A DNA stretch of 60,546 bases from positions 1 through 60,546 of the IMG/VR virus record IMGVR_UViG_3300028024_000009; one strand, written 5' to 3'. The stretch comes from a virus. Its lineage: Duplodnaviria > Caudoviricetes. A program made the translations under genes and the position numbers. The notes under the pieces are model-generated. The model had not been told where the DNA came from. It searched no databases and worked only from the letters and a program-made list of their open reading frames with translations. Shown one piece after another: positions 3,687 through 56,226 of the stretch. Each line of letters starts with the position of its first letter. The first letter of the stretch is position 1.

Positions 3687-4682
3687 ATGATCCGCTTGCT
3701 CGACCACGGATTCGTTCGTCTCGTTTCCTACGTTCAGCCAGCGCCCGATTTCTCGGCCGTTGATAACCCCGAGTACGGAGGAAGTTCGGCTGACGTGATT
3801 CTCGATGCGCATAGCAAGTGGACGGGGGATCTGGAAATCATCCGCAACGCGCGCGTGTCGTACGATGCCGATTGGCGTAATGACGGAACGGTCCTGCACG
3901 AGCCGCATTGCCCGTCGATCCTGCCGCCGATGTCGAACGGAGAGCCTCGGCCCTGCAATTGCGTTCCACGTACGGTCTCGGACTCGCGCCTGATGGAGTA
4001 TCTCTACTCCCATATCCATTCGACGCCGTTCGAGGCGATGATCTTCACGTTCGAGGTGCAGGCACCGATCTTCGTCTTCCGGCAGTGGCATCGGCATCGC
4101 ACGTGGTCATATAACGAGGTGAGCGCGCGTTATACGGAGCTGCCGAGCACGTACTACGTTCCGGCCCCGGAGGATATCGGAACGCAAGACCCGAAAAACA
4201 AGCAAGGGCGTTCCTTCGTCCAAACCATGTCACAGGGCTATGCCGAACGCGAGCGGCAGCGGCTGATGGTTGAGGGGTTCGATATCGAAGCTTCCCACGC
4301 ACATCGGACGTACCAGGATCGACTGGGAGAGGGCGTGCCGCGCGAGATCGCACGGATCAACCTACCCCTGTCAACGTACTCCCGGATGTTCGGTACGGTA
4401 GATTTGTGGAACCTCTTCGGCTTCCTATCCCTGAGGGACCACCCGCATGCGCAGTACGAGATTCGAGTCTACGCGCAGGCGCTGAAAGAGCTGATCCGTC
4501 CAATCGTGCCGGAGGCGATGCGCGCGTACGACCGGTTCAAACGGACGATGATCGACACTGAGCATGAGTTTGTTGCGGATGTCAGGAACCTCGCACAGAC
4601 GATCACGGTCAACGGAAAAGAGTATATCGTGCAGGTCACGCCGGTGCCGTCTGACGACATGCTGATGCCAAAGGTGCGATAA
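3687..4682 (+). CDS. thyX: FAD-dependent thymidylate synthase
   Basis: 'ARVSY', 'H.TPFE', 'PIFVFRQWHRHRTWSYNEVSARY', 'REIAR..LP' and 'HAQYEIR.YA'. Confidence 0.96.
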   Translation: MIRLLDHGFVRLVSYVQPAPDFSAVDNPEYGGSSADVILDAHSKWTGDLEIIRNARVSYDADWRNDGTVLHEPHCPSILPPMSNGEPRPCNCVPRTVSDSRLMEYLYSHIHSTPFEAMIFTFEVQAPIFVFRQWHRHRTWSYNEVSARYTELPSTYYVPAPEDIGTQDPKNKQGRSFVQTMSQGYAERERQRLMVEGFDIEASHAHRTYQDRLGEGVPREIARINLPLSTYSRMFGTVDLWNLFGFLSLRDHPHAQYEIRVYAQALKELIRPIVPEAMRAYDRFKRTMIDTEHEFVADVRNLAQTITVNGKEYIVQVTPVPSDDMLMPKVR

Positions 4683-5883: not shown

Positions 5884-6243
5884 ATGCGCTCGTTAGCTGA
5901 TAGCCGCAAGGCGTGGGAAGGTAGCTCGGTTCACACCACATTCACCGCGAACTGTGCATGCGGAGCGGAAGGCTATATCCAGGGAATTGATATCGAATTC
6001 GAGTCTCTGCGCCGCAAACTGAGTGTGGGGGGCTGGCGCTTTAACGATGCCGGCGACCGCTGCATCTGCCCGAAGTGCGGTCCGAAGAAATATCCGGAGC
6101 TGTACGTTCCTAACTCTCACTACAAAGCTAAACCAGATGGCAGTGTCAGTAATTCTCCGCGTGTCGTGCGACGCGTCGGTCAATCGGGAAGGAAGCAAGC
6201 TGAAAAAAAAGTGCTCGCGCCACGACGAATTCGAAAGCTCTAA
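5884..6243 (+). CDS. Zn-binding hypothetical protein
   Basis: CxC...GW...CxCPKC. A similar GW...CPDC ORF overlaps at ~6138-6373. Confidence 0.5.
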   Translation: MRSLADSRKAWEGSSVHTTFTANCACGAEGYIQGIDIEFESLRRKLSVGGWRFNDAGDRCICPKCGPKKYPELYVPNSHYKAKPDGSVSNSPRVVRRVGQSGRKQAEKKVLAPRRIRKL

Positions 6244-6473
6244 TATCTTCGCTTCGAAGAAGATGGCGACCGACGCGGGCTGGTGCTTTACGATGCGCTA
6301 CACGAAAGACATTATTCTCTGCCCCGACTGCGGGCCAGAAATCATGCCACACTACTACGCGAGGCGAACATGACCTGCTCAGATTGGCTTGAAAAGAACT
6401 TCTGGTGGTTCTGTCCAATGGTCGGGATAACTCTCGCTGGAATCATAATTTGGTTCCTCGGGTGATCTTCGGG

Positions 6474-7152: not shown

Positions 7153-7223
7153 GACGAGATTAGCTCAGTGGTAGAGTGCGGGACTAGGTCCCGAGGTCGA
7201 GGGTTCGAATCCCTCATCTCGTC
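7153..7223 (+). tRNA. tRNA-like gene with shortened (5-nt) anticodon loop; identity undetermined
   Basis: 8-bp acceptor GACGAGAT/ATCTCGTC, D arm GCTC-AGTGGTA-GAGT, T arm GAGGG-TTCGAAT-CCCTC, anticodon arm CGGGA-CTAGG-TCCCG. No encoded CCA. Confidence 0.75.
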
Positions 7224-7361
7224 CTTTTCAGGTTGCGCCCGAGCCGAGGCACAATGAGTATCGGCCCGCATTTCTGGGAGCTTGCGTAATCCGTACCCAG
7301 CGCATCCGAGTCTGCGACAGTGCGTTCGGCCGTGTCATCCCTGCGGAATCAGGGATGGGTC

Positions 7362-8189: not shown

Positions 8190-8358
8190 GGAACAGGCAT
8201 GGGTTTTGGTCTATGGAATCTCACTGGCGATCGGCATGCTCGGGAGGAAAGGGGCCGCTCCGGGATTCGAAGAGAGGTTCGCGGACAAAATCGACTCACA
8301 AGCTCGGGCCGTTGCGGACCAAGCTGTCACCACCCTGAAAGAGAAGGGAGTCCTGTGA
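8167..8358 (+). CDS. Hypothetical protein
   Basis: GAGGAG RBS, coupled to the next gene. Confidence 0.55.
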   Translation: MLSQATSEEQAWVLVYGISLAIGMLGRKGAAPGFEERFADKIDSQARAVADQAVTTLKEKGVL

Positions 8359-8855
8359 ATAAGCAGAAACAGCTCGAAAAACTTCTTCTGGGGTGTCCAA
8401 CGTGTGCGTACGAGGAAGCGGATGGGGTACTCTATCGCCACTGCAACAAATGCCAGTTCGACATCTCAAAGCTTGCGTACGAGATCGTGATCGAGAACAA
8501 AACAACCCTCGGTGCTTCCGGTTTCCGCAATGGATTGACCGATGCTGAGGAGGAGATGCTTCAGATTGCGGAGGAGGAGTGCGCCGAGCTGATTCAGGCC
8601 ATCTCGAAGATTCGCCGACACGGAATCGATCGGGAGGAAGTAGGGCAGAAGGGAGAGGAACCTCTCGAGGAGGGCCCCCGGATTCAAAATCTCCACGAAG
8701 AGTGCGGCGACGTGATCGCGTGTATCGCGATCCTCTCCCACAACAAACTCATCGAGATTGGTCGGGTCAACAAAGTCGCACGACAGAAACTCGATCGCCT
8801 CAAGGTTCCCGGCAACACGCGGGTTCATTTCATGGTTCCTCACATGATTCCGTAG
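8355..8855 (+). CDS. MazG-like nucleotide pyrophosphohydrolase with N-terminal Zn finger
   Basis: 'EEECAELIQAISK' and 'EECGDV' (ExxE...ExxD), plus CPTC/CNKC. Confidence 0.75.
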   Translation: MNKQKQLEKLLLGCPTCAYEEADGVLYRHCNKCQFDISKLAYEIVIENKTTLGASGFRNGLTDAEEEMLQIAEEECAELIQAISKIRRHGIDREEVGQKGEEPLEEGPRIQNLHEECGDVIACIAILSHNKLIEIGRVNKVARQKLDRLKVPGNTRVHFMVPHMIP

Positions 8856-9083: not shown

Positions 9084-10589
9084 ATGTCCACCGCTCTAGC
9101 CAAGCTTGATCTCTCCGACCCCGGATCGCTGCGGAAGCAGCTAGCCGCATTCAATACGGAGGACCTAATCCTCCTGCGCTGGAAGATGCTATGGAAAGCC
9201 CAAGCCCGGCGCAAACAAATTCCCCCCACCCTGTTACCGAGCGGCAAGCCGTGGAAAGTCTTCGGCGTGCGCTCCGGTCGCGGCTTCGGCAAAACTCTGA
9301 TGGGAGCGAATTGGCTCGGGCAGGCTGCCGCAAGCGATCCCGGGAGCTACAATTTCGTTATCGCTCCGACGCACGACGACGTACGATATACGTGCTTCGA
9401 AGGTCCTACGGGGCTCTTTTCGGTTATCCCCCCGCAGCTCATCGCCGATTGCAATTTGACGCTCCCGTCGATAACCCTGACGAACAGGTCGATCATCAGA
9501 GGATTCGCGGCCGTCGCTCCCGAGCGCTTGCGCGGTCCGCAGAGCAATCGCATCTGGGCGGATGAGGTTGCGTCTTGGCGCGAGCCTAATAAGTCCTGGG
9601 ACAACCTGATGTTCGGGTTGCGCCTCGGTCCGCATCCGCAGATCTTCTGGACTGGCACGCCGAAGCCAACCCCGTTCGTCACCAAGCTGTGCAAATATCT
9701 CACCGACATTCTGGTGTTGGGATCCACATACGAGAATCGGGAAAATCTGGCCGACTCGTTCTACGAGAACGTTGCAAAGTACGAAGGGACGAAGATCGGT
9801 CGTCAGGAACTCTATGGGGAGCTGATCGATCCCGAAGAGTCTGGATTCGTCAAGCGTTCCGATTGGAGGCTTTGGCCGGCGGGCAAGCCGCTGCCTCGCT
9901 TTAAGTTCATCCTCCTCTCCCTGGACACCGCTTTTACTGAGAAAACGTTCGATAAAAAGGAACAGGAGAACGATCCGACTGCCTGTTCCGTTTGGGGTAT
10001 GTTCGAATACGAGCGCAAAGAGCACGTGATGCTGCTCGACTGCTGGGAAGAGCACCTCGGGTTCCCCGAGCTGATCCGCCGTACCAAGCGGGAGATGAAG
10101 AAAACGTACGGAGATGCCGACGAACCCCTGATCAAGGTCGTTCTCCCCGGACAGATTACTCCACACCACGGACGCAAGCCTGATTTGATCTTGATCGAGG
10201 ATAAAGGCAGCGGTATTTCTCTGCGCCAATCTCTGGCAATGGAAAATATATTCGCTGAGCCATATAATCCGGGCCGCATGGATAAGCTCTCCCGGCTCCA
10301 TGCGGTATCTCCCCTCTTCCCCCACAAGCGGGTATGGGCAGTGGAGAGCCGGAACAATCGGGGGAACCCGGTTTCGTGGGCCGATCCGATCATCACTCAG
10401 GTTTGCTCGTATGTCGGCGAGGGTTCTCTCGAGCACGATGACCTTCTCGACACCGCGACACAGGCATTGAAGTTTTTGATGGATAAGTTCCGGATGACGT
10501 TTACGAACAAGGTCGATCCCGACGAGAAGACTAAACAGGCGGCCGATAAGCTCCGACAGAAAAAGGCAGGTAACCCCTATGATCAATGA
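9084..10589 (+). CDS. terL: Terminase large subunit
   Basis: Walker A 'GRGFGKT', 'LRGPQ', Walker B 'WADE', 'TGTP', and nuclease motifs 'SLDTA' and 'HDDLLD'. Confidence 0.95.
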   Translation: MSTALAKLDLSDPGSLRKQLAAFNTEDLILLRWKMLWKAQARRKQIPPTLLPSGKPWKVFGVRSGRGFGKTLMGANWLGQAAASDPGSYNFVIAPTHDDVRYTCFEGPTGLFSVIPPQLIADCNLTLPSITLTNRSIIRGFAAVAPERLRGPQSNRIWADEVASWREPNKSWDNLMFGLRLGPHPQIFWTGTPKPTPFVTKLCKYLTDILVLGSTYENRENLADSFYENVAKYEGTKIGRQELYGELIDPEESGFVKRSDWRLWPAGKPLPRFKFILLSLDTAFTEKTFDKKEQENDPTACSVWGMFEYERKEHVMLLDCWEEHLGFPELIRRTKREMKKTYGDADEPLIKVVLPGQITPHHGRKPDLILIEDKGSGISLRQSLAMENIFAEPYNPGRMDKLSRLHAVSPLFPHKRVWAVESRNNRGNPVSWADPIITQVCSYVGEGSLEHDDLLDTATQALKFLMDKFRMTFTNKVDPDEKTKQAADKLRQKKAGNPYDQ

Positions 10590-44626: not shown

Positions 44627-45572
44627 CACGAACCTCGAAGTGCGTCTTGCGAACGAAGTCGGCGTCGAGGCCGCGCAGCTCCGCATGACAGAGTTTATAG
44701 AATTCGCAATCCCACGAGCAATTCTTCGTCAGGTTGCGTGCTTTGAGATTTAATCCGTACTCGTCGATCAGGATGGCCGTCTCGCGAGCGTCATCGACTA
44801 CGGATTTTACCATCTCCGGGGAGGGTGTTGGCAATCTGATTCGCTGAAAAAAATCGGTCGTCCCGCGCCTTTTCAGATCAACCAGAAACCCCTGATAAGG
44901 CTTCGGATCCAGCCGGAGCCGGGAGATCTCCGCGAGGTAAGTATGATAATCCGTAGCGATACTCTTGGCCTGGGAGAGTCCTCCATTCTTAAGCTGATCG
45001 GGGATCGTCGGAGGCTTGCTGCGGATATAATCCCATAACACACCGTCGAGGTCGGCTTTGGGCTTGCGCTGATTCTCGGCCCAGTAGTATAGCACGAGCT
45101 GAATATCGGAGAATCGATCCTTTTCCTCTGGGATGGATTTGCACGTCTTGTGATCCATCAGCCAACGCCGGCCCTCGGGATCGATTGCGATCTTATCGAT
45201 GATATAAATCAGCTCGATTTTCTTCTTGACGAGCACGACTCGGAACTCCTCCTCGCTGCGCTCGTATTTCAGCTTATCATCCTTGTAGGTCCGCTTGTAC
45301 GCTTCGAAGATACGCTCGATCTCCGAAATGAAATCGTCGCCATACTCCTCACGCTGCTCCCTGAATAGCTGTTTGTATTGCTTGGCGTATTTGACTGTAA
45401 CGTTGAAGGGATCCTTGTGATCCACCATCGCGTCGATCATCTCGTGGATGATCGTTCCTTTCAGCAGCGGGGCCGGCTTCGCTTTGACCGCGAGGCGCTG
45501 ATTGTAGCGGTAATCGTGCTTCTTGAAGCACCGGCGGAACGTCTTGATCCTTGAATGTGATACACTGATCAT
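44598..45572 (-). CDS. PD-(D/E)XK exonuclease (RecB/Cas4-like)
   Basis: 'SHS.I..F.RC', 'G...H', 'ID', 'DHKT', 'QL..Y' and C-terminal 'C.W.C.F..LC'. Confidence 0.88.
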   Translation of the reverse strand: MISVSHSRIKTFRRCFKKHDYRYNQRLAVKAKPAPLLKGTIIHEMIDAMVDHKDPFNVTVKYAKQYKQLFREQREEYGDDFISEIERIFEAYKRTYKDDKLKYERSEEEFRVVLVKKKIELIYIIDKIAIDPEGRRWLMDHKTCKSIPEEKDRFSDIQLVLYYWAENQRKPKADLDGVLWDYIRSKPPTIPDQLKNGGLSQAKSIATDYHTYLAEISRLRLDPKPYQGFLVDLKRRGTTDFFQRIRLPTPSPEMVKSVVDDARETAILIDEYGLNLKARNLTKNCSWDCEFYKLCHAELRGLDADFVRKTHFEVRDENRKEKVE

Positions 45573-48094
45573 AATGTTATTGCCTTTCCGGCACCCCAGG
45601 GGCCGATTTCGAGTTCCGCGACGAGCGGGATGGATAAATCGATTTTGAAGTCGTCGAAGAGAGCCGGTCTCTCCATGATACGCTTGACACGCCGGAGGGA
45701 AGGCAGCATTGAAGGCCCTTTGCGGACGATCATCAAGATAGCATCGTGGTGCTCACCAACAACCTTCAGGTCGGTATGCGGGACAGTCTCGTGGATTTCT
45801 ACCATCGCCATAGCCTTGATGTCCCCAATAACCCCCTGGACCGGAGAGTTTATTGCCTGCCGCTCGCACTCGCTCCGTAGCATACGATCCGAGGAGGCGA
45901 TCCCAGGCAGCCGACGTACCCGACCGCTCAAGCTCCTCACGAAACCATCCAAAGCTACAAGCTTTTTCTGCTTCTCGTGCCACGGGTGGAGCCCTCGATA
46001 GAGCGCGAAATACGCGCGCTTGAATTCGGCTGCTTCTTCGAACGTCGGCTCGAACCCGTACTTGGTCTTGCACGTTTGGATGAACTTGTTTTCGAACATC
46101 CCGTAGAGGAATCCGAAGTTGATAGCTTTGGCCCGCTTGCGCGCTTCCTTCCAGATCTTGTCGATTTCGATGCAGGCATCGTGTCCAGCCCTTCGAAGAA
46201 CTTCAATCGCTTCCGCGAGTCGAATACCAGCTCGTCCAGCGAGACGTCCTGCAGTGACAAGAGCCGGTTCGAGGTATGTGTCGGATGCTCCCGACTCGAT
46301 GGTGTGGAGGAGAGTGGACCAGTGGACATCAGGTCCGCCAGGAGAGAAGCAGCGACGTAGCTCGAGATCTCCAGACAACTCTGCAGCGATCCGAAGCTCT
46401 GCCTGAGAGAAATCCCCCTGGAGGAATTCCCATCCGGGCGGGGCAATCGCAAGATTGCGGATCTTGCCGTCTCGAGGGACTGAATGCAATCTCGAAGAGT
46501 ATCGACCCGTAACTGTGCCGTGGATTTTGTACGAGATGTAGAGCTTGTCATCGACCATTAACTCCTCGAAGCCCTCGATGTAGGTCGAGTGGAACTTCGC
46601 GCATTCTCGATATTTCAGCAACGCGTCGACGACCGGATGTTTCCCTTTGAGGGCGAGCAAGCTCTCCTCCGAGGTCGAGGGGGCTCCTTTCGCGGTAAGC
46701 ATCGCGGGCTTTAACCCCGCTTCCTTGAATAACACCTTAGCGACTTGCGGAGGCGAGTTCCAATTCGTTGTGCGGTGGATCCCCCGCCGGTCTTTGCGCA
46801 GATCGCGAACAGCGTTATTCAGGGATCGCTCGAGGTCGTCTCGCTCAGCGGCAATTTCGATTCCGGTTTGTTTGAACTTTGGGACATCGATTGTAAGGCC
46901 ATGCTCTTCAATTCCCAGTAGCTCGGCTGTTCCTCCAAGTGCTCGAGAGGCACGCATCTGCAGCTTGTAGAAAAGCTTTCGAAGATCGGGTTCCTTCGCA
47001 AACATCTCGTGGAAAACATGTTTGAGTCTCAGGGTGTATACGGCGTCCCGTCCGGTATAGTCGAAGAAGCGCGGTAGATCTGTGGGCCACTGCTTCTCGC
47101 GGAGGGGAATATCATACTTGGGGGCTTCGAGGTAGTAGTGGCTGAGATACTCCAAGTCCTGGGGCGTATTCTCGTTAAGCACGTGGTGTGCCAACATGGT
47201 GTCGAACCGAAGGTCAAATCGCACTCCGAGTTTGGCCCAAAGAAAATGGTTGTCGAATTTTCCATTGTGTGCGATCCCCGATTTACCTTTGGCGAGGAGC
47301 ATCAGCAGCTTCCCCATCCGCCGCTGAGCGTCCGGTCGAAGCAGATATGGACTCTTCTGCATCTGCATGGGAATGATCCATGCCTTATCGTCGAGTCCGA
47401 TGTTGATAGAGGTAATAGTCGAGCTAGGTTTGAACCAATGCAGAGACGACGTCTCGAGGTCGAACGAGAACTCCTCTACCGCTAGGAACTCGTCGACGAA
47501 ACGCCGAATTGTCTTCGCAGTAACAAGCTCCCATTCGACCTCGACACGCTTCTCGCGCCCCTCGAGCGCATCTTTGAGCCTCCGAAGAGCTTTACGGAAG
47601 TCCGGCAGCTTGCTTGGGTCCCGGCCGACGTACGCGGGGTGGAAAGCCGGGACACCCTTAAAGGCTAGGGGCTGCCAGCGCTTGGGGGCCTCGAGCACTT
47701 GCCCGTTGACCTGCGTGATTTTCGCATTCCCTAAGACTTCTTTCGTCGCAGGCTTGCCGAGGGTGAGTACAAACCGAGGCTTAATCGTCGCAAGCTCCTC
47801 CTCCAGATACGGCCGGCATGCCTTAATTTCTTCCGGAGTAGGATCCCGATTATCAGGAGGACGACACTTGACAATGTTCGTAATATAGACATCGTCGAGG
47901 TCCGCGTTCTTGAGTTCTCCTCGTAGCAGCTGACCACTACGGCCCATGAAAGGTCGTCCAGTTTTCGCTTCAGCCTGTCCCGGCGCTTCTCCGATTGCAA
48001 CCACGCTCGCAGTAGTGGGCCCGTCACCCCATACGCAGACATTGACAGCTCCTTTCCACAACCCGCAGTTGCGGCAATCCTTATTACGGGGCAT
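45569..48094 (-). CDS. polA: Family A DNA polymerase with N-terminal uracil-DNA-glycosylase (family 4) domain and 3'-5' exonuclease
   Basis: UDG 'C..C.L', 'GEAPG', 'KCRPP.NR.P', 'HPAY'; exo 'FDLET', 'HNGKFD'; pol 'DFSQAELR', 'R..AKAINFG.LYG', 'HDA'. Confidence 0.95.
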   Translation of the reverse strand: MPRNKDCRNCGLWKGAVNVCVWGDGPTTASVVAIGEAPGQAEAKTGRPFMGRSGQLLRGELKNADLDDVYITNIVKCRPPDNRDPTPEEIKACRPYLEEELATIKPRFVLTLGKPATKEVLGNAKITQVNGQVLEAPKRWQPLAFKGVPAFHPAYVGRDPSKLPDFRKALRRLKDALEGREKRVEVEWELVTAKTIRRFVDEFLAVEEFSFDLETSSLHWFKPSSTITSINIGLDDKAWIIPMQMQKSPYLLRPDAQRRMGKLLMLLAKGKSGIAHNGKFDNHFLWAKLGVRFDLRFDTMLAHHVLNENTPQDLEYLSHYYLEAPKYDIPLREKQWPTDLPRFFDYTGRDAVYTLRLKHVFHEMFAKEPDLRKLFYKLQMRASRALGGTAELLGIEEHGLTIDVPKFKQTGIEIAAERDDLERSLNNAVRDLRKDRRGIHRTTNWNSPPQVAKVLFKEAGLKPAMLTAKGAPSTSEESLLALKGKHPVVDALLKYRECAKFHSTYIEGFEELMVDDKLYISYKIHGTVTGRYSSRLHSVPRDGKIRNLAIAPPGWEFLQGDFSQAELRIAAELSGDLELRRCFSPGGPDVHWSTLLHTIESGASDTYLEPALVTAGRLAGRAGIRLAEAIEVLRRAGHDACIEIDKIWKEARKRAKAINFGFLYGMFENKFIQTCKTKYGFEPTFEEAAEFKRAYFALYRGLHPWHEKQKKLVALDGFVRSLSGRVRRLPGIASSDRMLRSECERQAINSPVQGVIGDIKAMAMVEIHETVPHTDLKVVGEHHDAILMIVRKGPSMLPSLRRVKRIMERPALFDDFKIDLSIPLVAELEIGPWGAGKAITL

Positions 48095-48500
48095 AGTTTC
48101 TCACTTGGACTCCGGCGTGATAAAGCATTCTCAGCGGATCCTTATCGCGATATTCCCGCAGATATAAGAACCGAATGATCCCCGCGTTGATGATCGCTTC
48201 CGCGCATGTCTTACAGGGAGAATCGGTGCAATACATATCTGCGCCTTCGGTTGCGATGCCATGACGAGCGGCGAAGTAGATCGCGTTTGCTTCGGCATGG
48301 ACCGTAGCATAGCAAGGTTTGTCGGGGCCGCATGTATCCGGAGTGCAATGCTCGAATCCGGTCGGGCTTCCATTGTAGCCTGTCGCGATGATTCGACCAT
48401 TCCGAGCGAGGACGGCCCCGACGTTCAGCCGGAGACACGTAGAGCGCTTCGCGGCCAGCTTTGCGGCGTCCATCAAGTACTCGTCTCGGGTGATTCTCAT
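48084..48500 (-). CDS. dCMP deaminase
   Basis: 'RSTC.R..VGA', 'TGYNG', 'HAEANA' and 'PCKTC'. Confidence 0.92.
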   Translation of the reverse strand: MRITRDEYLMDAAKLAAKRSTCLRLNVGAVLARNGRIIATGYNGSPTGFEHCTPDTCGPDKPCYATVHAEANAIYFAARHGIATEGADMYCTDSPCKTCAEAIINAGIIRFLYLREYRDKDPLRMLYHAGVQVRNYAP

Positions 48501-49066
48501 TTGCTGAACACCTTTTGCAATTTGGGAAACAGCTTCTCGTTCGAGTTCCCCTTCAATGCGAAGATATGCGCTCGGGCTGCGAGGATCGTCAATCGGCGCC
48601 ACTCGAGATCGAGGCTGTTTCCGAGCCGCTCGATGAGCACGAGGTCATATCCGAATCCGCCGATAAGCTCGAGTGATCGGTACATGAGTGTGAGATCGGC
48701 TCGGGCCCCGTCGGAAAGGAGTGATATTGATCCCCCCACGAGGCAGAAGTCCCCTCGCTCCCCGTGGTATCCATGGCCCGATTTCGCAGCTCCGAACCGT
48801 ATTGAGGAATCTTTCTCGCGGCTAATTCTCTGCCCCACTCGCGAGAGTTCCTCGGGGATGAAATAGTTGGTGCAGCGATTGGTCGCTCTCTTCTCCGAAA
48901 TAGTCGAGATATCCAGCGCATATTTATCCTCCCATTGTTGAATCTGAATGACGACCGGTGAGTAGACGGCGGAACGATACTCAGGAACCATGATCTTCCA
49001 TGCTTGAGCAACGTCCCGCGCCTCGAGCAGAAACGGCTTAGGCATTTGATACCGGCTGATGTCCAT
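48497..49066 (-). CDS. Divergent thymidylate-synthase-fold protein
   Basis: 'FCL' Cys followed by 'YRSLELIGGFGYDL', matching the TS RS(D/E)...N/D region. Confidence 0.55.
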   Translation of the reverse strand: MDISRYQMPKPFLLEARDVAQAWKIMVPEYRSAVYSPVVIQIQQWEDKYALDISTISEKRATNRCTNYFIPEELSRVGQRISREKDSSIRFGAAKSGHGYHGERGDFCLVGGSISLLSDGARADLTLMYRSLELIGGFGYDLVLIERLGNSLDLEWRRLTILAARAHIFALKGNSNEKLFPKLQKVFSK

Positions 49067-49634
49067 CCAGATAGGTCTTCATCCCCCGTAAATTTCGAAG
49101 AATGATCTGGCAGCGGCGGGCCTGCCTAATGCAGTCGCTCAGGGGGTTATGAGCCTCGAACCCCTCGAATTTCTCACCGGAGTAATCGATACCGAGCTGA
49201 TCGGCGAGTCGGGAGAGGGTTGTCAGATCTCGTCCCATCCGCCAATCCCACGGCAACGACAATCCCTGATCTCGGTACCACGTCTTCAGGATAGAGAGAT
49301 CGAACGTATTCGGACCGGCCCAGACCCAATGACCGCCGTCGGCCTCAGGAGCGAAGGAAGCCATCCATCTGAGGATTTCCCCGGAGACTTGGGTCTCTCG
49401 TGCCGTACCGGACCAAACCTGCCAGGCGAGATCGGGGGATTTCGTGATCTGTTCGTTCCACCAATCGAGAGTCGAAGTATCGCGGCGACCTGAAGCAAAG
49501 CGAGGGTCGATCAGCCAGATCTTCTGTTGGCGAATGTTATCGAGGTCGAACTCGACCGCACCGATGGCGATGATAGCCGCATCGTTCTCGGTCGAAAGGG
49601 TCTCGAGATCGATCATCACGTGTTTGTTATGCAT
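49038..49634 (-). CDS. DEDDh 3'-5' exonuclease (Rv2179c/ExoVIII-like)
   Basis: 'MIDLETL', 'IGAV.F', 'T..WW..Q', 'FD..IL' and 'HN.L.D'. Confidence 0.88.
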   Translation of the reverse strand: MHNKHVMIDLETLSTENDAAIIAIGAVEFDLDNIRQQKIWLIDPRFASGRRDTSTLDWWNEQITKSPDLAWQVWSGTARETQVSGEILRWMASFAPEADGGHWVWAGPNTFDLSILKTWYRDQGLSLPWDWRMGRDLTTLSRLADQLGIDYSGEKFEGFEAHNPLSDCIRQARRCQIILRNLRGMKTYLDGHQPVSNA

Positions 49635-50478
49635 GTTTTTCCTTCAGCTGTTGGTAATCGTTGACGAACATGTGGAGACTTCCGATATTCATCTTGAAGA
49701 GCCCTGGCTTTACGTCCCCCCACTTATGGTCCATTCCGCGCAACCTTTCGAGTACCCATAGCAGGAGTCTGACCGTGAAATAGCAATCGTCTCGGAAGTG
49801 GCGGACAAAATCGCACGAGCGGATGCTGTATTCAACGTGGAGATAATCATGTCGCAGGAGGAAATGATAACCGAGGGAGCACGGTAGGCGACCGCCGTGG
49901 ACGGCACCCGTGTCTTCGGGGAACCATACTGGAAGATACGCTTGTCGTGTAAGAGGTTCTCGACGCAGGAGTTCCACGACATCACTGAGGTCTCCATAAG
50001 GATAGCGAATTCCGTGGTTCCCGTATGCAGCCGCCATGCAGTTGGCATCGCACGAGGATTCGGGGCCACAAGAACCTTCGTGGCTTGGCTCGGGGCGTCC
50101 GGCATGCTTCGGCCAGAATCGCTCCTGGTAAGTGTGGGTGAACTTTCCTCCCTCCGTTCGATGAGCGTCCGCAGCGTTCCCCCAAGGCCAGATCTTCCAA
50201 GCTTCCCCAGGATTGCTTGGTACTCCCGAAACCCGCTCGGCAAAGTGAACATCCGCGAAAGGTAAGTTTGGTCGAATATCATTCTGCCAATGCTCCAGCG
50301 CTTCGAGTCCCCGCAACGGGATCGAAAATGAGTAATGGAGAAGTTCTCGCATTCTCGCCTCGGGCTTGCGCGAGATATCCACCCCCTGCCATTTCTCCGT
50401 GTGCACCTCGTGGGCCTGCTCGAGGAAAAACTTCTCGAGCCGCTTGCACACCTCAGTGAACGAGACGACGATGCTCAT
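49627..50478 (-). CDS. Thymidylate synthase homologue, predicted dCMP-specific (methyl/hydroxymethyl-transferase-like)
   Basis: 'TRQA', catalytic 'PC', 'RSCD.......D' and 'IGSLH.F'. Confidence 0.85.
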   Translation of the reverse strand: MSIVVSFTEVCKRLEKFFLEQAHEVHTEKWQGVDISRKPEARMRELLHYSFSIPLRGLEALEHWQNDIRPNLPFADVHFAERVSGVPSNPGEAWKIWPWGNAADAHRTEGGKFTHTYQERFWPKHAGRPEPSHEGSCGPESSCDANCMAAAYGNHGIRYPYGDLSDVVELLRREPLTRQAYLPVWFPEDTGAVHGGRLPCSLGYHFLLRHDYLHVEYSIRSCDFVRHFRDDCYFTVRLLLWVLERLRGMDHKWGDVKPGLFKMNIGSLHMFVNDYQQLKEKHA

Positions 50479-50864
50479 GCGTATCTCGGAATCACGGTGA
50501 GATCGTCCCACATTCCATCGGAACCGACGAGGTCGCTGTACTTGTACACCATCTTGCCATTCATCTGCGCCCAGACGATTTCCCGGCGCGTCGACTCCCC
50601 GATGTACGGAACCTCATTGTGCGTCACCGGATCCTCGACCGTACCGACGACCACGATGGCATCGGAATTAAGGATCTTGGCGAGATGGACGAGATCGAGA
50701 TTTTCCTTCGTGATCCGATCCATTTTGATCCCGGGGGTCGCGGCTGATTCGTCCTCCTTCGCCCAAGAAACCGTATAGACAACGTGGCCCGCTTGCGAAA
50801 GCCTCGTATTTGCTTCCTGGTATTCTTGTTTGAAGCGGGTCGAACCGCACAGAGTAATTCTCAT
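50475..50864 (-). CDS. Nucleoside 2-deoxyribosyltransferase-like protein
   Basis: 'ITLCGS.RF', 'H..KI..SDAI.V' and 'YIG.ST..EI..A...GK.V'. Confidence 0.75.
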   Translation of the reverse strand: MRITLCGSTRFKQEYQEANTRLSQAGHVVYTVSWAKEDESAATPGIKMDRITKENLDLVHLAKILNSDAIVVVGTVEDPVTHNEVPYIGESTRREIVWAQMNGKMVYKYSDLVGSDGMWDDLTVIPRYA

Positions 50865-51031
50865 GGTATCCTCTCGTTTTCTCTGAAGGCGTCGATCACG
50901 TCGCGGACTGCTCGCTCGTAGTCGCGCCGGACTTCTGGGTAATCGTCATCAACGATGGGCGTGAATTCGATTCGTCGGTATTGTTTGGCTAGCTCGGCGA
51001 CCTTATCGAATTCATTCTTCTGCGTCTGCAT
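50861..51031 (-). CDS. Small hypothetical protein
   Basis: 'TPIVDDDYPE.R..YE.A'; coupled to the next gene. Confidence 0.55.
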   Translation of the reverse strand: MQTQKNEFDKVAELAKQYRRIEFTPIVDDDYPEVRRDYERAVRDVIDAFRENERIP

Positions 51032-51830
51032 CTTGTCTTTTGCCACGGGGGATATACTCGCCTTTTTGGTGGTGGATTTTGGCCCAATCGAGGGGTCCGA
51101 ATCGCTTGTGCTCTTTGATAAGATATTCCCGGATGCGCTTGAATTGCTTCGGGGGAATATGGGACCATGCAAATCGATGCGCGACGTTCTCGGGGGAGTA
51201 CGGGAAGAATTGATCCTTCTCCATCGAACTCCGGAGAAAAAATCGCGTGGCATGCTTGAAAAACTCGAGATCTGATTCGAAGACATCAGCTAGAAGATCG
51301 AGCGGATCATCAGCGAAGGTAACGAGATAGGGCAAATATACGCCACTCAAGTAGCAGTTAGCGAATCGAAAAGTCACCGTCTGTGGATCAACTCCAAGCT
51401 GCTCGAATACCCATGGCAAGAAAACGAGATCTCCGCCGAACTTTAGTGTGAGTTCGGTCGAACGGTACTGCACTTCAACTCGTTCCTCTTTCTTCGTGCG
51501 CGTAACGACCACGGAGAGGATGCAATGACCCATCGAGCGATTGCCCTTCGACGCTCCACGCATGGAGCACGCCACGGAAGTGAAGCTCTGATCTTTACGA
51601 CGGTCGAGGACGGCACGAACCCGGGCAAGCTCTTCTTCGTTGACATAATTTCGCACCAGCTGCTTGAATTTGTTCTTACCGTACCCGAGATCAGAGAACG
51701 TGACAGGCGTCTCCGTAATCGAGTTCGACATCTCCCAAGTCATTCCGTTGATGATCTTCCTTACCCCCTGATATGCGATGGGTTTTGCGTCGAGAGCTTT
51801 CCGTGCAATCTGGATGAGAGGGTGGCTCAT
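51012..51830 (-). CDS. Divergent thymidylate-synthase-fold protein
   Basis: 'HCI' Cys followed by 'YRSTELTLKFGGDL'; also similar to the 48497 gene ('NY...EEL.RV'). Confidence 0.55.
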   Translation of the reverse strand: MSHPLIQIARKALDAKPIAYQGVRKIINGMTWEMSNSITETPVTFSDLGYGKNKFKQLVRNYVNEEELARVRAVLDRRKDQSFTSVACSMRGASKGNRSMGHCILSVVVTRTKKEERVEVQYRSTELTLKFGGDLVFLPWVFEQLGVDPQTVTFRFANCYLSGVYLPYLVTFADDPLDLLADVFESDLEFFKHATRFFLRSSMEKDQFFPYSPENVAHRFAWSHIPPKQFKRIREYLIKEHKRFGPLDWAKIHHQKGEYIPRGKRQDADAEE

Positions 51831-52327
51831 ACGAGTCTGAAGCAATCGTCGCACTGGCACCCTTGGGGATGGGATTTCGAGGGTTTGCGGAACCCGTGCA
51901 CCACTTGGAATTCCCTGATCACACCATCGATATCCGGGGGTCGCCAGCCCTCGGGCTTTACGACCTCGAGCCCGGTCGTATTGCGAGGTTTGATCGGATC
52001 GCCCTCCTTCCATGGACGCTTCGTCATGTTTGCCCGGTGAACCTCTTCCCAAATAGCGTTGAAGGGGATTCCCATGTAGTGAGCAGTCCCGAGCACGATG
52101 TAGATGATATCTACGAGCGCATCGGAGACTCCCGCGAGATCTCCCCGACCTTGTGCGATCAGGAACTCCTTGATCTCCTCGAACAGGAAGCTCATGCGGT
52201 AATCGAGATCTTTGTCCTCGAGGAGCGCGGGGGGTCGGACGGCCCGATGATCCCGACAGCACCACTCGGCCGACAGAGGAAGCTTCATGCGCTCGTGGAA
52301 CGCGCCGACGTCATCGAAGTAGCTCAC
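51827..52327 (-). CDS. All-alpha NTP pyrophosphohydrolase (PRA-PH/MazG-like)
   Basis: 'V..FH', 'EE..E', 'DALVD..Y...G', 'VH.ANM.K' and 'KP.GW..P'. Confidence 0.88.
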   Translation of the reverse strand: MSYFDDVGAFHERMKLPLSAEWCCRDHRAVRPPALLEDKDLDYRMSFLFEEIKEFLIAQGRGDLAGVSDALVDIIYIVLGTAHYMGIPFNAIWEEVHRANMTKRPWKEGDPIKPRNTTGLEVVKPEGWRPPDIDGVIREFQVVHGFRKPSKSHPQGCQCDDCFRLV

Positions 52328-52863
52328 GTGTTGATCCCCCCAAAGAAGATATCCGCCAATGGACGAGTCTCAGTTGTGTAATCGTAGAGGTATACCGGAA
52401 CTCCAGATGCGCGTATTTTCACCATCGTCTGATCATAGGAATCGAGGAGATCGAGAATTTTTTCCTTAACCCCCGCGAGCTGAGGTTTATTATCGACATT
52501 CGCTATGATCGTATCGTCCGACGGACGACAGTAGATTACGCGCTCGACGGCTCGGAATAGCTCATCGAGTCGATCCTCCTCCTTCTTGAACTGCTGAGAT
52601 TCCTCGAAGAGATGTCCTCCACGAAGCAACGACCCGTAGATCGGCTCGCTTATCAAGGGGTGTCGGTCGGCGATGACGTCGAGACCGGCATGGTACGAGG
52701 TGAAGTTGGCAGCGCGCATGAACTGCGTTGCGTGGTGGAGAGCTAGAGGGCGGCACGAATGCCGGATGATTACGAAGTAGCGCTTGGGGATTTGGATCCG
52801 AGCATTCTCGAGGAGCGTAGATTTTCCACTAGCGTCTACGCCTTCGACTACGATAAGCGACAT
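52324..52863 (-). CDS. P-loop nucleoside monophosphate kinase
   Basis: 'EGVDASGKST', 'DRH..ISE.IY' and 'IYC.P'. Confidence 0.85.
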   Translation of the reverse strand: MSLIVVEGVDASGKSTLLENARIQIPKRYFVIIRHSCRPLALHHATQFMRAANFTSYHAGLDVIADRHPLISEPIYGSLLRGGHLFEESQQFKKEEDRLDELFRAVERVIYCRPSDDTIIANVDNKPQLAGVKEKILDLLDSYDQTMVKIRASGVPVYLYDYTTETRPLADIFFGGINT

Positions 52864-52989
52864 TGGACAACCCTCCGGGCGACTGTTTATTTTTGACGAC
52901 GAGTTGCGCATGCTAAGCCCGTGTTTGCCACTTGTAAATTTTTCTAATCACCGTCAGAAAAATGGCGCTCCGAAGAGCGCCGAAGAATT

Positions 52990-55170
52990 TTGGAGTCCAA
53001 CGTGATCAAGCGTAACGGAAAGTCGCATCCGAGTAAATTGTTTGATAGTGCGCGTGCCGCGCAATCGTGGTTAGATCTGGGGATCCTGACAATACCGCTG
53101 CATCCGCGTTCGAAAAAGCCGAAAGGCGAAGGTCGGGGGAACGGTGCGAAAGGTTGGCAGAAGATGCGATTGACGTCGGAGACTCTCAGCGAGTTCTTCG
53201 AGCGGGGAGATAATATCGGAGGTTTGTGGGGCGAGCCGAGTGGATGGATCATCGATGTCGATCTAGACTGCGAGGAAGCGATTGCCGCCGCTGACACTCT
53301 CCTACCGCCGACGTTTATGTACGGCAGACGCAATCGACCTGCCTCTCACTACCTGTATCGATGCGAGGGATTAGCGACATTCAAGCGGGCTGCATCTAAC
53401 GAGATGCTGCTCGAAGTTCGTTCGACGGGCAGTCAGTCAGTGCTTCCTCCGTCTATCCACCCTGAAGGAGATCGGTATGAAATCAACCATGATGTGGATT
53501 TTAAAACTATTAGCCGTCGCGAGCTGGAGCGGCGCTGTAACATGGTGGCTGCTGCCGCCGTCCTCGCCAAGAATTATCCCGAGTCTGGTAGCCGCCACGA
53601 TTTCGTGCATACTGTTTCCGGGTCTCTTCTTTGGGAGGGGTGGACCCCAGAAATCGTCCGGGAATTCATGACCGCGATGCTCGATGCGGCTGACAGGAAG
53701 GAAGACGACCGCCAACAACGCGAGCGCACCATCGAGAACACCATTGAGCACTTCGCCCGAGGTGACAGGATAAGCGGCTGGCGAACTCTCAGTCAATGGC
53801 TGCCTGCAAAGGATATGGAGAACGCCCGACTGTGGTTGCGGATCGGCAAGCAGCAAGATGAAGCCCCCGAGGCAGTCGAGCCTGAGAAGATCGTCTCTGA
53901 TTTGGATCCGAGCTTCTTGAAAGTCCCCGGTTTGGTGGGAGATATCGCTAAGTGGTGTGCGACACGATCGTTTACGGTCCAGCCGCTATTCGACCTCGCG
54001 GTAGGGCTATGCTCGGTAGCTCTCGCAGCGGGAAACAAGTACGTCGTCGACGGCTGGGAAACCCCACTGCAACCTTACTTCATGCTCCTCGCGCCGACCG
54101 CCTCGGGTAAGGAAAGCGCGCTCGACGGGGTTCACGAAGTGGCACGTAAGATCGGATTGGGCAACAATACTTTTCAAGGGTTTCAATCCTACCACGCGCT
54201 GTTAGATAAGCTCGGCGAGGCTCCTCACGCCGCCTGCTGGCTATGGGACGAGGCCGCACGCAAGTTGCGCTCGACCGGTAAGGCACAAGGGGGACAAGAC
54301 TACCAGATCGTTACGTATCTCCTCTCCCTGTACGGTAAGGCGGCATCGAGCGTGGCTGGCATGCCCGGGCGCAAGCAAAGCATCGAGGGAGTAGAGCATC
54401 CGTTCCTCACCATCTTCGCAGCCGCTCAACCTAACCAGATGATCGAAGCGATCACTGACTCCGATCTCTCGATGGGACTCATCAACCGCTTCGTTCTGTT
54501 CGACGCCGGAGACGAGCTACCAGACGCGAACCTAACCCGCCAGAACGTTTTCCCGGCACGGCTCGAAGAGGGGCTCAAAACCTTCCGCTCCATCGATCCG
54601 CCGAAAGGGGAATTTCCTTTCATACACATCAAGATGAATTCGACGGAGACGTACGCGATCTTTCGAGACTTCCACGAGCGTTGTCGGGAGCAATCAATCA
54701 AAGGCGGAGGATGGGAGATGTGGGGCCGGGCGAATCAGAACGCGTTGCTTCTCGCCGGGATCGTTTCGGTGGGTATCAACCCGAAGAATCCGGTGATTAC
54801 GGAGTCGCTCGCTCAGTGGGCTACCCGCTTCATGGATTGGGCTTCGCATCGCTGGACGCAACGAGTCGAGGAATGCTCGTCGCGGTCGGTTATCGAAACC
54901 GGGAGCAAGCTCGTAGAGCGCATTATACGCAATGCGGCGTCCTATACGGGGCGAACGGCGGGACGAGCGGCGGAAGCCGCAGCCGTCGGACGGGGGCTTA
55001 TGCCGCGATCCCTCCTTACGCGGCTATGCCGGCATATGCGCGGGCGTGATCTCGAGGACGCAATCGATTCCCTGATCTCGAGCGATTTGGTGGCGACCGG
55101 AGAGGCCGAGGGGATCGATTGCGTGTGGATTAAAACCCCTTCGCTCCAAGCGAACGCAGCAGACTCGTAG
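52990..55170 (+). CDS. Bifunctional primase-polymerase fused to helicase-like P-loop domain
   Basis: 'IP.....K.P', 'NIG...G', 'DVDLD', 'H.LY', 'PPS.HP.G..Y'; C-terminal 'APTASGKE' and 'WDE'. The start may be GTG 53002. Confidence 0.88.
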   Translation: MESNVIKRNGKSHPSKLFDSARAAQSWLDLGILTIPLHPRSKKPKGEGRGNGAKGWQKMRLTSETLSEFFERGDNIGGLWGEPSGWIIDVDLDCEEAIAAADTLLPPTFMYGRRNRPASHYLYRCEGLATFKRAASNEMLLEVRSTGSQSVLPPSIHPEGDRYEINHDVDFKTISRRELERRCNMVAAAAVLAKNYPESGSRHDFVHTVSGSLLWEGWTPEIVREFMTAMLDAADRKEDDRQQRERTIENTIEHFARGDRISGWRTLSQWLPAKDMENARLWLRIGKQQDEAPEAVEPEKIVSDLDPSFLKVPGLVGDIAKWCATRSFTVQPLFDLAVGLCSVALAAGNKYVVDGWETPLQPYFMLLAPTASGKESALDGVHEVARKIGLGNNTFQGFQSYHALLDKLGEAPHAACWLWDEAARKLRSTGKAQGGQDYQIVTYLLSLYGKAASSVAGMPGRKQSIEGVEHPFLTIFAAAQPNQMIEAITDSDLSMGLINRFVLFDAGDELPDANLTRQNVFPARLEEGLKTFRSIDPPKGEFPFIHIKMNSTETYAIFRDFHERCREQSIKGGGWEMWGRANQNALLLAGIVSVGINPKNPVITESLAQWATRFMDWASHRWTQRVEECSSRSVIETGSKLVERIIRNAASYTGRTAGRAAEAAAVGRGLMPRSLLTRLCRHMRGRDLEDAIDSLISSDLVATGEAEGIDCVWIKTPSLQANAADS

Positions 55171-55660
55171 CGCGTCCTTCAACCGTCATGGCGAGGAGGT
55201 TACGAACCGCGTGACCTCCGTCGCTGTCGTCGAGACAAGCGGCATCGAGTTCGTTGTTCAGATGGTAAAGCTCGGGGTAGTCGATCGCATCATCAAGCAT
55301 GATGATCGAATGCGCCAGATGCCACAAGCACTTTTTCTTCTTCTTCGAATCGAGGTGCCGCGCATAGGGCTCGGGCAATACGAGAGCGACGAGCGCCCCG
55401 AAGGCATTCCACGTCATTGCATTGTAGAATCCCCCCCACGTTAGGTCGTCCGCGCTCTCCCCTTGATGTAGCAGAGATTCGCTATGAGACTTCGTATGTA
55501 TGAGGAGTTTAAGAAGCTCCGAGGTCTCGACCGACTTACCCTGCAGGAGCGTGCGGAGGATCGGACTCAACTCACGCATGCACTTGCGTCCCCTGAAATC
55601 ATCGATCTTCTCAAATCGGTCATCCAGCATTTTCGCCAGTTGCCGTATCGTCTCGCTCAT
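55130..55660 (-). CDS. Hypothetical protein
   Basis: Coupled to the DnaJ gene, convergent with the primase. Confidence 0.6.
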   Translation of the reverse strand: MSETIRQLAKMLDDRFEKIDDFRGRKCMRELSPILRTLLQGKSVETSELLKLLIHTKSHSESLLHQGESADDLTWGGFYNAMTWNAFGALVALVLPEPYARHLDSKKKKKCLWHLAHSIIMLDDAIDYPELYHLNNELDAACLDDSDGGHAVRNLLAMTVEGRATSLLRSLGAKGF

Positions 55661-56226
55661 ATTCCAGCTTCCTTCTTAGCTTGGTTTAGTTCGGACATCT
55701 TTTCGTGTGATCCTCCCGGGCGATCGGGGTGATACTTCATCGCCAGGGATTGATATGCTTTCTTGCGTTGGGGTTTCGTAGAATTCGGCCGCACTCCGAG
55801 AATCTCATACCATTCACGCTTTTTATCTGTCTTCGGGGGCTTCTCTTCCCCTCGAAAGGATTCGTCGAAACCTCGCCATTTTTGGCGGAGAATTTCTTCC
55901 TCCCAGACCTTTTGCTGCTTCCGCCAGAACTCTTCGGAATCAAAATTGGTTTCGTTGAACCAGCGAGCTTCTTCTCGCCTGACTCCATCCCTCCAGTCGA
56001 ATTCGAATCCGCCTCGCGCCTCATTGCCTCGGTACGGCTCCTCGTAGTGACGCCCCCGACTCTCTCGACGAGACGGCTGCTCGACATCGTAGCCTTCGCG
56101 CTTGCGCAGGAGATCGAGAAACCACAACACTGACTCGATCAGCTCGGGATCGAGCGGGACGACGCGCCCTTTGTAAAAATCACTCAACACACGACGCAAC
56201 GCGAGCCGAACGGTATCTAATTTCAT
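55657..56226 (-). CDS. J-domain protein
   Basis: C-terminal 'WYEILGV......KKAY..LAMKYHPDR.GG..EKM.ELN.A'. Confidence 0.9.
   Translation of the reverse strand: MKLDTVRLALRRVLSDFYKGRVVPLDPELIESVLWFLDLLRKREGYDVEQPSRRESRGRHYEEPYRGNEARGGFEFDWRDGVRREEARWFNETNFDSEEFWRKQQKVWEEEILRQKWRGFDESFRGEEKPPKTDKKREWYEILGVRPNSTKPQRKKAYQSLAMKYHPDRPGGSHEKMSELNQAKKEAGI

Follow-up and report, generated by a model that had tools for sequence, protein, structure and literature searches.

A phage operon joining a thymidylate synthase homologue to two putative thymidylate-synthase-fold proteins, read as a probable cytosine-replacement module

The window examined here, that is, the whole stretch of DNA under analysis, is the complete IMG/VR virus record IMGVR_UViG_3300028024_000009, which holds 60,546 bases of a phage genome estimated to be 98% complete. 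This report deals with an operon of ten minus-strand genes that runs from a kinase-like gene to the gene of DNA polymerase A (PolA) and whose ends overlap according to the coordinates of the open reading frames (ORFs). The operon encodes a thymidylate synthase (TS) homologue and two further proteins, called A1 and A2 in what follows, which are putative TS-fold paralogues. An earlier note, made on the same DNA from its letters alone, had proposed here a cytosine-modification pathway with three TS-fold enzymes, alongside a separate ThyX, the flavin-dependent thymidylate synthase. Compared with the ORFs and their translations, the note is right in the genes that it lists, in their coordinates and in the motifs that it quotes, and a complete thyX gene does lie elsewhere in the window. 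The genes concerned are the following:

52324..52911, minus strand: deoxynucleoside monophosphate (thymidylate)-kinase-like P-loop protein (phrog_761, thymidylate kinase, 1.1e-14)
51827..52327, minus strand: MazG/PRA-PH-type nucleoside triphosphate (NTP) pyrophosphohydrolase (PF01503, 5.6e-16; phrog_671, 4.1e-28)
51012..51830, minus strand: A1, 272 amino acids, putative divergent TS-fold paralogue (phrog_34294, listed as of unknown function, 7e-11)
50861..51025, minus strand: ORF of 54 amino acids with overlapping ends (ORF list)
50475..50864, minus strand: possible nucleoside deoxyribosyltransferase (NDT)/Rcl-like (DUF4406-like) protein of 129 amino acids, accessory (2 of 11 relatives reach DUF4406, at a weak E of 0.058)
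49627..50511, minus strand: TS homologue, the called gene of 283 amino acids starting at 50478 (PF00303, borderline; phrog_160, 1.9e-27)
49038..49634, minus strand: Rv2179c-like DEDD 3'-5' exonuclease, accessory (PF16473, 2.1e-28; phrog_255, 7e-39)
48497..49066, minus strand: A2, 189 amino acids, putative minimal TS-fold paralogue (homologues start at the Met at 49045)
48084..48500, minus strand: zinc deaminase of the deoxycytidine monophosphate (dCMP) deaminase family, 138 amino acids (PF00383, 1e-24; phrog_174, 1e-52)
45569..48094, minus strand: PolA with an N-terminal uracil-DNA glycosylase (UDG)-superfamily domain and a 3'-5' exonuclease domain (PF03167, PF01612, PF00476)
3687..4682, plus strand: ThyX (PF02511, 140 bits; TIGR02170, 149 bits against a cut-off of 87.9)

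The packing of these genes is tight. Adjoining ORFs of the operon share 4 to about 14 nucleotides by their coordinates. The exonuclease and A2 frames overlap by 29 nucleotides when A2 is counted from its first ATG, and by 8 when it is counted from the Met that its homologues use. The ATG of the deaminase and the stop of A2 form an ATGA junction, the GTG start of the pyrophosphohydrolase overlaps the stop of the kinase-like gene and the start of PolA overlaps the stop of the deaminase.

The TS homologue is the sole match of the window in a genome-wide scan with the thymidylate synthase profile PF00303. This match is borderline, with 24.3 bits in one scan, equal to the curated cut-off (24.3), and 23.6 bits in another, and the thymidylate synthases of the PDB are matched from 6e-4. 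Aligned with Escherichia coli ThyA, T4 gp42 and PaMx74 ThyA, the protein keeps Trp80, Trp83, Tyr94, Arg126, Cys146, Arg166, Ser167, Asp169 and His207 (E. coli numbering throughout). Trp83, Tyr94, Arg126, Cys146, Arg166, Ser167, Asp169 and His207 are invariant in an alignment that includes E. coli ThyA and T4 gp42, and Trp80 is invariant in a second one that includes these two proteins and PaMx74 ThyA. At four further positions, the TS homologue has Asp177, Ser147, Arg143 and Phe209. It also lacks the classical C-terminal segment, since the protein stops 14 residues past His207. The marks of a classical ThyA (Asn177, His147, Tyr209 and the closing segment at the C-terminus) are therefore absent from it.

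This particular combination of residues is highly conserved. A survey of 84 TS homologues, of which 80 come from IMG/VR loci, three from named phages and one from the window, found the signature R143, C146, S/T147, R166, D169, D177, H207 and F209 in 83 of them, the exception carrying Glu169. Asp at position 177 was present in 84/84, and in 47/47 aligned relatives, where the Cys, the Arg-Ser pair and the Asp are likewise invariant. Arg143 was also found in all 84 proteins, so that the Asp or Glu characteristic of T4-type dCMP hydroxymethylases at this position occurs in none. Excerpts of two published studies (PMC8670742, PMC13326640) describe Asn177Asp as the dCMP-selecting change in thymidylate synthases, and in those of the first, positions 177 and 147 best separate the enzymes of cytosine-modified contigs from those of unmodified ones. 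By these residue rules, the TS homologue should act on dCMP. Excerpts of PMC13326640 add that Asp169Asn marks the 5-hydroxy-dCMP synthases and that Leu143Asp/Glu accompanies hydroxymethyl products. An identity as 5-hydroxy-dCMP synthase was considered and ruled out, Asp169 being kept in 83/84 proteins and replaced by Glu in the remaining one. The TS homologue is therefore expected, on the strength of Asp177 and Asp169, to be an enzyme of dCMP other than a 5-hydroxy-dCMP synthase, and we infer that it is a dCMP C5-methylase or hydroxymethylase.

The gene neighborhood of the TS homologue was then compared across phages. A profile of the TS-homologue family matched 464 confirmed IMG/VR stretches, and the counts below refer to the best 80 of these 464 and to genes within 8 kb of the TS homologue, those in brackets to the subset of 59 loci in which the sequence extends for 4 kb or more on either side. 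A deaminase gene occurs in 74/80 loci (56/59), PolA in 69/80 (52/59) and A1 in 66/80 (51/59). The MazG gene was found in at least 40/80 (at least 33/59) and the kinase gene in at least 34/80 (at least 29/59), both values being lower bounds obtained by single-sequence phmmer searches at 1e-5. The other genes are far less frequent: the exonuclease occurs in 11/80 loci (9/59), the 129-residue ORF in 10/80 (8/59), A2 in 8/80 (6/59) and ThyX, within the same 8 kb, in 5/80 (5/59). Because it is limited to 8 of the 80 related loci, A2 is not core to the module. A2 and the 129-residue ORF co-occur in 7 loci, and where the position of the latter is given, A1 flanks it on one side and the TS homologue on the other, with or without intervening genes. 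The association of A1 with the TS homologue is close, A1 being placed immediately upstream in nearly all cases. In 43 of the 66 loci that have both, the end of the A1 frame falls within -100 to +150 nucleotides of the start of the TS-homologue frame, and all 16 loci collected with an A1 profile also contain the TS homologue.

The same organization is found in cultured phages, where the order kinase, pyrophosphatase, A1, TS homologue, (A2), deaminase, PolA, Cas4-like exonuclease and Sak4 is conserved. The TS homologue and A1 occur together in the Pseudomonas phages PMBT14, Almagne, Lebethron and STP12, in Stutzerimonas phage STP9, in the Brevundimonas phages Strzyga and Polewnik, in the Serratia phages Serbin, Tlacuache and Opt-155 and in Yersinia phage P744. 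Homologues of A2 are present in the Pseudomonas/Stutzerimonas set, as well as in Gordonia phage Yakult, and are absent from Strzyga and Serbin. Several of the phage records list no thymidylate synthase feature at the place of the TBLASTN match of the TS homologue, Lebethron and Tlacuache having only a 'hypothetical protein' there. In PMBT14 (NC_048687.1), the product annotated as gp46 (5290-6274), a 'dCMP deaminase' of 319 amino acids, overlies, with its upstream part, an unannotated A2 homologue of 187 amino acids. A fusion of A2 with the deaminase, which would have been a Rosetta-stone case, was considered for gp46 and rejected, as the two frames differ; gp46 seems to be an over-extended deaminase ORF. 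Distant A1-like ORFs were also observed in the Clostridium perfringens phages Clo-PEP-1, CPAS-15, CP3, CPD4 and others (25% identity over residues 40-182, E 1e-8), one of them being annotated as a 'colanic acid biosynthesis glycosyltransferase', and Clostridium phages are among the matches of the TS homologue as well.

The frequent linkage of the TS homologue with a deaminase in these loci could also be explained by an alternative route to thymidylate and nothing more, in which dCMP would be converted to 5-methyl-dCMP or its triphosphate and then deaminated to thymidine monophosphate (dTMP) or triphosphate (dTTP), the cytosine of the virion being ordinary. PMBT14, which has the module and no ThyX, fits this explanation, and so does the lack of a dihydrofolate reductase (DHFR) gene, which would be a mark of reductive methylation, in four of four module-bearing genomes, a weak piece of evidence given that the PaMx74 control itself scored only 15.7 bits. 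Such a route would nevertheless be redundant beside the ThyX that is present in the window, in Strzyga and in MW202455. In these three genomes the TS homologue is not the sole route to thymidylate, and its presence is presumably not explained by thymidylate supply alone, precisely because ThyX is there. That the operon encodes both a pyrophosphatase and a kinase agrees with the replacement of a nucleotide pool, and the same neighborhood is enriched on contigs that were selected experimentally for modified cytosine, according to excerpts of two studies (10.1101/2024.12.05.627091; PMC8670742). A thymidylate route as the sole function appears quite unlikely to us.

The two remaining paralogues, A1 and A2, belong to families for which the searches made here returned no description. 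As single sequences or as family profiles, they match no Pfam, NCBIfam or PDB entry, in agreement with the remark of the earlier note that the two RSxE variants match no enzyme that it could name. The one PHROG match of A1 is the unnamed phrog_34294, and A2 has no PHROG match. At E<=0.001, 136 relatives were collected for A1 and 186 for A2; many of these are encoded on contigs of about 60-70 kb, and all names given by the sources read 'hypothetical protein'. When 1.84 billion proteins were searched exhaustively with the A2 profile, only 60 representatives came up, none of which formed a link to PF00303; 0/10 distant A2 representatives match this profile at E<=1. Full-text literature searches aimed at additional TS-fold genes retrieved no paper on A1 or A2. 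Two public records label A1 homologues as 'pyrimidine hmase synthase', a third-party annotation whose method is not stated.

Their conserved residues nevertheless follow the spacing of a thymidylate synthase. A1 has Cys103, Arg123-Ser124, Glu126 and Asp134, and A2 has Cys108, Arg130-Ser131, Glu133 and Asp141. Four of these residues (Cys, Arg, Glu, Asp) do not vary in 50/50 relatives of A1 and 55/55 relatives of A2, and the Ser is kept in at least 90%. The distance from Cys to Arg is 20 residues (22 in A2, whose copy in the window has an insertion), followed by 3 and then 8, which matches C146, R166, D169 and N177 of the E. coli enzyme. Ser124 of A1 and Ser131 of A2 stand at the place of Ser167, the Glu at that of Asp169 and the Asp at that of Asn177. 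The Asp and the upstream Cys that the earlier note had pointed out in all three paralogues are present in the translations at the TS spacing.

Profile comparisons and structural models point in the same direction. By hhalign, A1 and A2 are homologues of one another (probability 96%, E 3.4e-9). When their profiles are merged, 161 columns can be aligned with a broad TS alignment in the TS register, from the helix before Arg126 to the strand of His207, with a score of 34.3 and a P value of 5.9e-4; 40 control profiles, column-shuffled or reversed, scored 19.7 at most. Only this merged profile, compared with the broader TS alignment, rose clearly over the controls. In the ESM Atlas, models of moderate confidence are available for A1 (predicted template-modelling score, pTM, 0.74; predicted local distance difference test, pLDDT, 0.71) and for A2 (pTM 0.71, pLDDT 0.67), and clusters of PF00303 are among their neighbours in structure, with TM scores of 0.51-0.53 for A1 and 0.68-0.69 for A2. 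From the Atlas neighbours, the merged-profile alignment and the spacing Cys...RSxE...D, it is likely, if not proven, that A1 and A2 have the TS fold. The fold that the note had assigned to these two proteins is supported to this extent by profile and structure, even if no PF00303 match accompanies it.

The same results bear on the possibility that A1 and A2 are no enzymes of the pathway, being either decayed TS-fold proteins that bind or regulate, for instance by sequestering a nucleotide or by poisoning the dimer of the host ThyA, or proteins with a chance likeness to TS. The lack of a PF00303 match at the level of hidden Markov models, the moderate confidence of the Atlas models with a TM score of just 0.51-0.53 for A1, and the equivalents of Arg126 and Arg127, which could not be placed with confidence in the merged-profile alignment, all agree with it. 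Opposed to it are residues of catalytic type that are invariant in both families, an in-register alignment that outscores 40 of 40 controls and the labels of the two public records. On balance, this possibility is very unlikely. In the reading that we prefer, A1 is a divergent protein, likely of TS fold, in which the Cys that serves as nucleophile, the Arg-Ser that binds phosphate and the cytosine-type Asp are retained. It most likely works with the TS homologue, either forming one enzyme with it as a subunit or acting separately on the same nucleotide. The smaller A2, a homologue of A1, is a lineage-specific accessory.

What could be the contribution of such proteins? The three TS-fold proteins might jointly, in several steps or as a heteromer as the earlier note had proposed, produce a cytosine derivative that has not been described. 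A1 and A2 keep the nucleophile Cys, the Arg-Ser, an acidic residue at position 169 and Asp177 across their families and look active on cytosine nucleotides; A1 is tied to the TS homologue by gene order, in 66/80 loci and in the 16/16 derived from A1 itself; neither protein matches a described family, and the literature searches for additional TS-fold genes returned no paper on them; and the TS homologue itself has an invariant Arg143 and lacks the classical C-terminal segment. In one variant, A1 and/or A2 would form a Cys-C6 adduct with 5-(hydroxy)methyl-dCMP and so activate it anew, another nucleophile trapping the exocyclic methylene; in a second, a heterodimer of A1 with the TS homologue would alter the product. 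Several facts speak against a joint product of this kind. A2 is absent from 72/80 loci and A1 from 14/80, and the C-terminal tail length and the active-site signature of the TS homologue do not differ with or without A1. The scan of 40 ORFs, a part of those in the window, showed neither a transferase nor a gene for the synthesis of a donor. Finally, as reported in excerpts of the preprint 10.1101/2024.12.05.627091, 5/7 deaminase-linked Asp177 enzymes made 5-methyl-dCMP when expressed alone with T4 gp1, although these enzymes may lie outside the present clade. A derivative made by all three proteins is thus unlikely. The narrower proposal that A1, with A2 in this sub-lineage, acts on cytosine nucleotides by a chemistry beyond methylation or hydroxymethylation, in a heteromer or in a second step leading to an undescribed derivative, is to be regarded as a possible but doubtful one.

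The preferred reading, to which we give a probability of about 0.6, is that the operon serves to replace cytosine before replication, in the manner of T4 and Xp12, and is carried by a widespread phage lineage. The genes present, the identity of their key residues, the likeness in fold and the co-occurrence across loci, all observed here, suggest the following course, whose substrates, product and physical associations between proteins are predictions. The Asp177 TS homologue would place a one-carbon group on C5 of dCMP, giving 5-methyl- or 5-hydroxymethyl-dCMP. This modified nucleotide would be phosphorylated towards the triphosphate by the kinase-like protein, and the MazG/PRA-PH enzyme would clear deoxycytidine triphosphate (dCTP). 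The deaminase would lead to thymidylate, either from dCMP by way of ThyX or directly from the 5-methyl nucleotide. The fusion of UDG and PolA would copy the DNA, its UDG domain presumably keeping uracil out.

The T4 pathway to hydroxymethylcytosine comprises the dCMP hydroxymethylase gp42, the deoxynucleoside monophosphate kinase gp1, the dCTPase gp56, the deaminase cd and the thymidylate synthase td. The operon resembles this set, by the roles predicted above, in combining a C5-modifying TS homologue, a kinase, a dCTP-removing hydrolase and a deaminase, to which ThyX is added as the separate thymidylate synthase. At the level of the protein, T4 gp42 shares Asp177, the short C-terminus and Ser/Thr147, and differs at position 143, which is Arg in the window instead of Asp. 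The hydrolase is of the MazG/PRA-PH type in the window, and not of the dUTPase type (gp56 is annotated as a dUTPase). In the window, two extra putative TS-fold genes are present and no glucosyltransferase was seen among the scanned ORFs; the earlier note had likewise seen no glycosyltransferase, and the scan returned none.

A second point of comparison is provided by the phage modules for 5-methylcytosine (5mC), namely those of Xanthomonas phage Xp12, Pseudomonas phage PaMx74 and the MetaGPA contig mSCD-B5, in which an Asp177 TS homologue is also found beside a deaminase of the dCMP family and an NTP hydrolase; the order of PaMx74 itself is hydrolase-thyA-cd. The differences are several. PaMx74 ThyA has no TBLASTN similarity to the TS homologue of the window at E<=1e-3 and keeps the C-terminal segment that the latter lacks, no DHFR neighbour accompanies the window gene, and A1 and A2 have no match in Xanthomonas phage records or in PaMx74 at E<=0.01. 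In excerpts of the bioRxiv preprint 10.1101/2024.12.05.627091, deaminases were found within 3 kb of a TS gene in 104/149 cases on cytosine-modified metavirome contigs versus 17/277 on unmodified ones, the other top neighbours of the deaminases being PRA-PH, DNA_pol_A and DNA_pol_A_exo1. In the operon of the window, PRA-PH and PolA are likewise among the neighbours. According to these excerpts, many of the deaminases favour 5mC, and the authors propose that the phages swap C for 5mC and obtain dTTP by deamination of 5-methyl-dCTP. Since this neighborhood of an Asp177 TS, a deaminase, PRA-PH and PolA is that of the operon, the pathway is already known as a kind. The analysis in the preprint is based on Pfam domains, and no second TS-like gene is mentioned in its excerpts.

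Two more distant systems deserve to be mentioned. The 5-hydroxy-dCMP synthases RB69 gp48 and DLP3 gp80 (excerpts of PMC13326640) share the TS fold, the action on dCMP and Asp177; the window protein lacks their diagnostic Asp169Asn, and no cluster of arabinosyl or other glycosyltransferases was seen among the scanned ORFs. In mildiomycin biosynthesis, excerpts of PMC5175136 and PMC4081090 describe a TS-fold CMP hydroxymethylase, MilA, with an NDT/Rcl-fold N-glycosidase of hydroxymethyl-CMP, MilB. The predicted cytosine-nucleotide enzyme of the window is similarly encoded next to a small protein that is possibly NDT/Rcl-like. This resemblance is limited by the weak assignment of the 129-residue protein and its occurrence in 10/80 loci, and by the context, which is phage DNA replication and not antibiotic synthesis.

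By analogy with the preprint, in which the same neighborhood was described and 5/7 TS homologues made 5-methyl-dCMP, 5mC or 5-hydroxymethylcytosine (5hmC) is a more likely constituent of the phage DNA than a new base. The suggestion of the earlier note that the base may be new went too far in this respect, the nearest experimental evidence (in the excerpts of the preprint) being for 5mC, and its cytosine-modification pathway is retained in its T4/Xp12 outline, with an Asp177 TS homologue beside ThyX, and not in its new-base part. The note had further proposed that ThyX and the deaminase supply dTMP. Both genes are present, but the deaminase may serve a modified nucleotide and not only feed ThyX, as excerpts of the preprint propose for in-cis deaminases in the formation of dTMP or dTTP.

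A number of observations weigh against the cytosine-replacement module as it is drawn here. The TS homologue is only 18-20% identical to E. coli ThyA, and PaMx74 ThyA and T4 gp42 are absent from its TBLASTN matches at E<=1e-3. Its invariant Arg143 is neither hydrophobic, as linked to methyl products, nor Asp or Glu, as linked to hydroxymethyl products (rule from excerpts of PMC13326640), and a methyl product cannot be told from a hydroxymethyl one in the sequence. The Leu143 rule itself looks imperfect, as our alignment places an Asn at this position in PaMx74 ThyA, although PaMx74 is a 5mC phage. The seven TS homologues assayed in the preprint may lie outside the R143/F209 clade. In the case of A1 and A2, PF00303 is matched at E<=1 by 0/50 and 0/55 members respectively, and hhalign against the family of the TS homologue alone gave probabilities of 1.3% and 0.2%, though the Cys and RSxD motifs were aligned. 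Beside the presumed dCTPase of the operon, the window holds a second pyrophosphatase-like gene, outside the operon at 8199-8855. Finally, since PMBT14 has the module without ThyX, its TS homologue and deaminase could simply make thymidylate in that phage.

The remaining components of the operon can be described more briefly. The kinase-like gene has its likely true start at Met17, at position 52863, which is the end coordinate used in the earlier note; its matches to AAA_16 and dNK (Pfam) and to TIGR00041 are weak and under the respective cut-offs. The MazG/PRA-PH enzyme would be a dCTPase. The second NTP-pyrophosphohydrolase-like gene (8199-8855, plus strand; phrog_4856, 1.1e-14; no Pfam match) is located just upstream of the large terminase. 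The ORF of 54 amino acids has no Pfam, PHROG or NCBIfam match, and no relative at E<=1e-5 in the fetched loci of other records. For the ORF of 129 amino acids, Pfam, PHROG, NCBIfam and PDB gave no match, nor was there any for its 11-member profile; a homologue in Anabaena phage A-1(L), 35% identical, is annotated as a deoxyribosyltransferase. This homologue and the two relatives that touch DUF4406, which we take to be a member of the NDT-like clan, are what bears on the NDT-like label of the earlier note, the weakest part of its reading. The deaminase matches the PDB entries 2hvv, 4p9c and 1vq2 at about 1e-24. In PolA, PF03167 covers residues 23-174 (2.5e-32, 112 bits) and is accompanied by PF01612 (4.5e-14) and PF00476 (3.6e-64). 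The ThyX ORF has 331 amino acids, of which the profile covers residues 96-281 only, so that either the true start is a later one or the protein carries an N-terminal extension of about 95 residues.

Outside the operon, the plus strand forms a structural arm, with the terminase at 9084-10589, the portal and the head and tail genes, and the minus strand a replication arm with an SNF2-type helicase, a Sak4-like annealing protein, a PD-(D/E)XK exonuclease and PolA. The nucleotide operon is faced by a divergent Prim-Pol/DUF3987 primase of 726 amino acids (52990-55170, plus strand). A DnaJ-domain protein (55657-56226, minus strand; PF00226, 8e-11) adjoins the replication genes, and one tRNA-Leu gene with the anticodon TAG is found at 7154-7224 on the plus strand.

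Base replacement defeats both restriction enzymes and CRISPR on behalf of phages, and it has given rise to tools, among them deaminases selective for 5mC that are applied in the sequencing of methylomes. The module described here is a common one, with 464 IMG/VR stretches that carry a relative of the TS homologue and with representatives in cultured phages of Pseudomonas, Serratia, Brevundimonas and Yersinia. What it adds to a known kind of pathway are two uncharacterised families, likely of TS fold, inside a common and experimentally tractable phage module, A1 being the most constant of its unannotated components. If A1 does nothing detectable, the module would be an ordinary pathway to 5mC or 5hmC and the finding a routine one. 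Should the product depend on A1 or be altered by it, the surveys based on Pfam have missed one enzyme of the pathway. Cultured carriers such as PMBT14 make this question directly testable.

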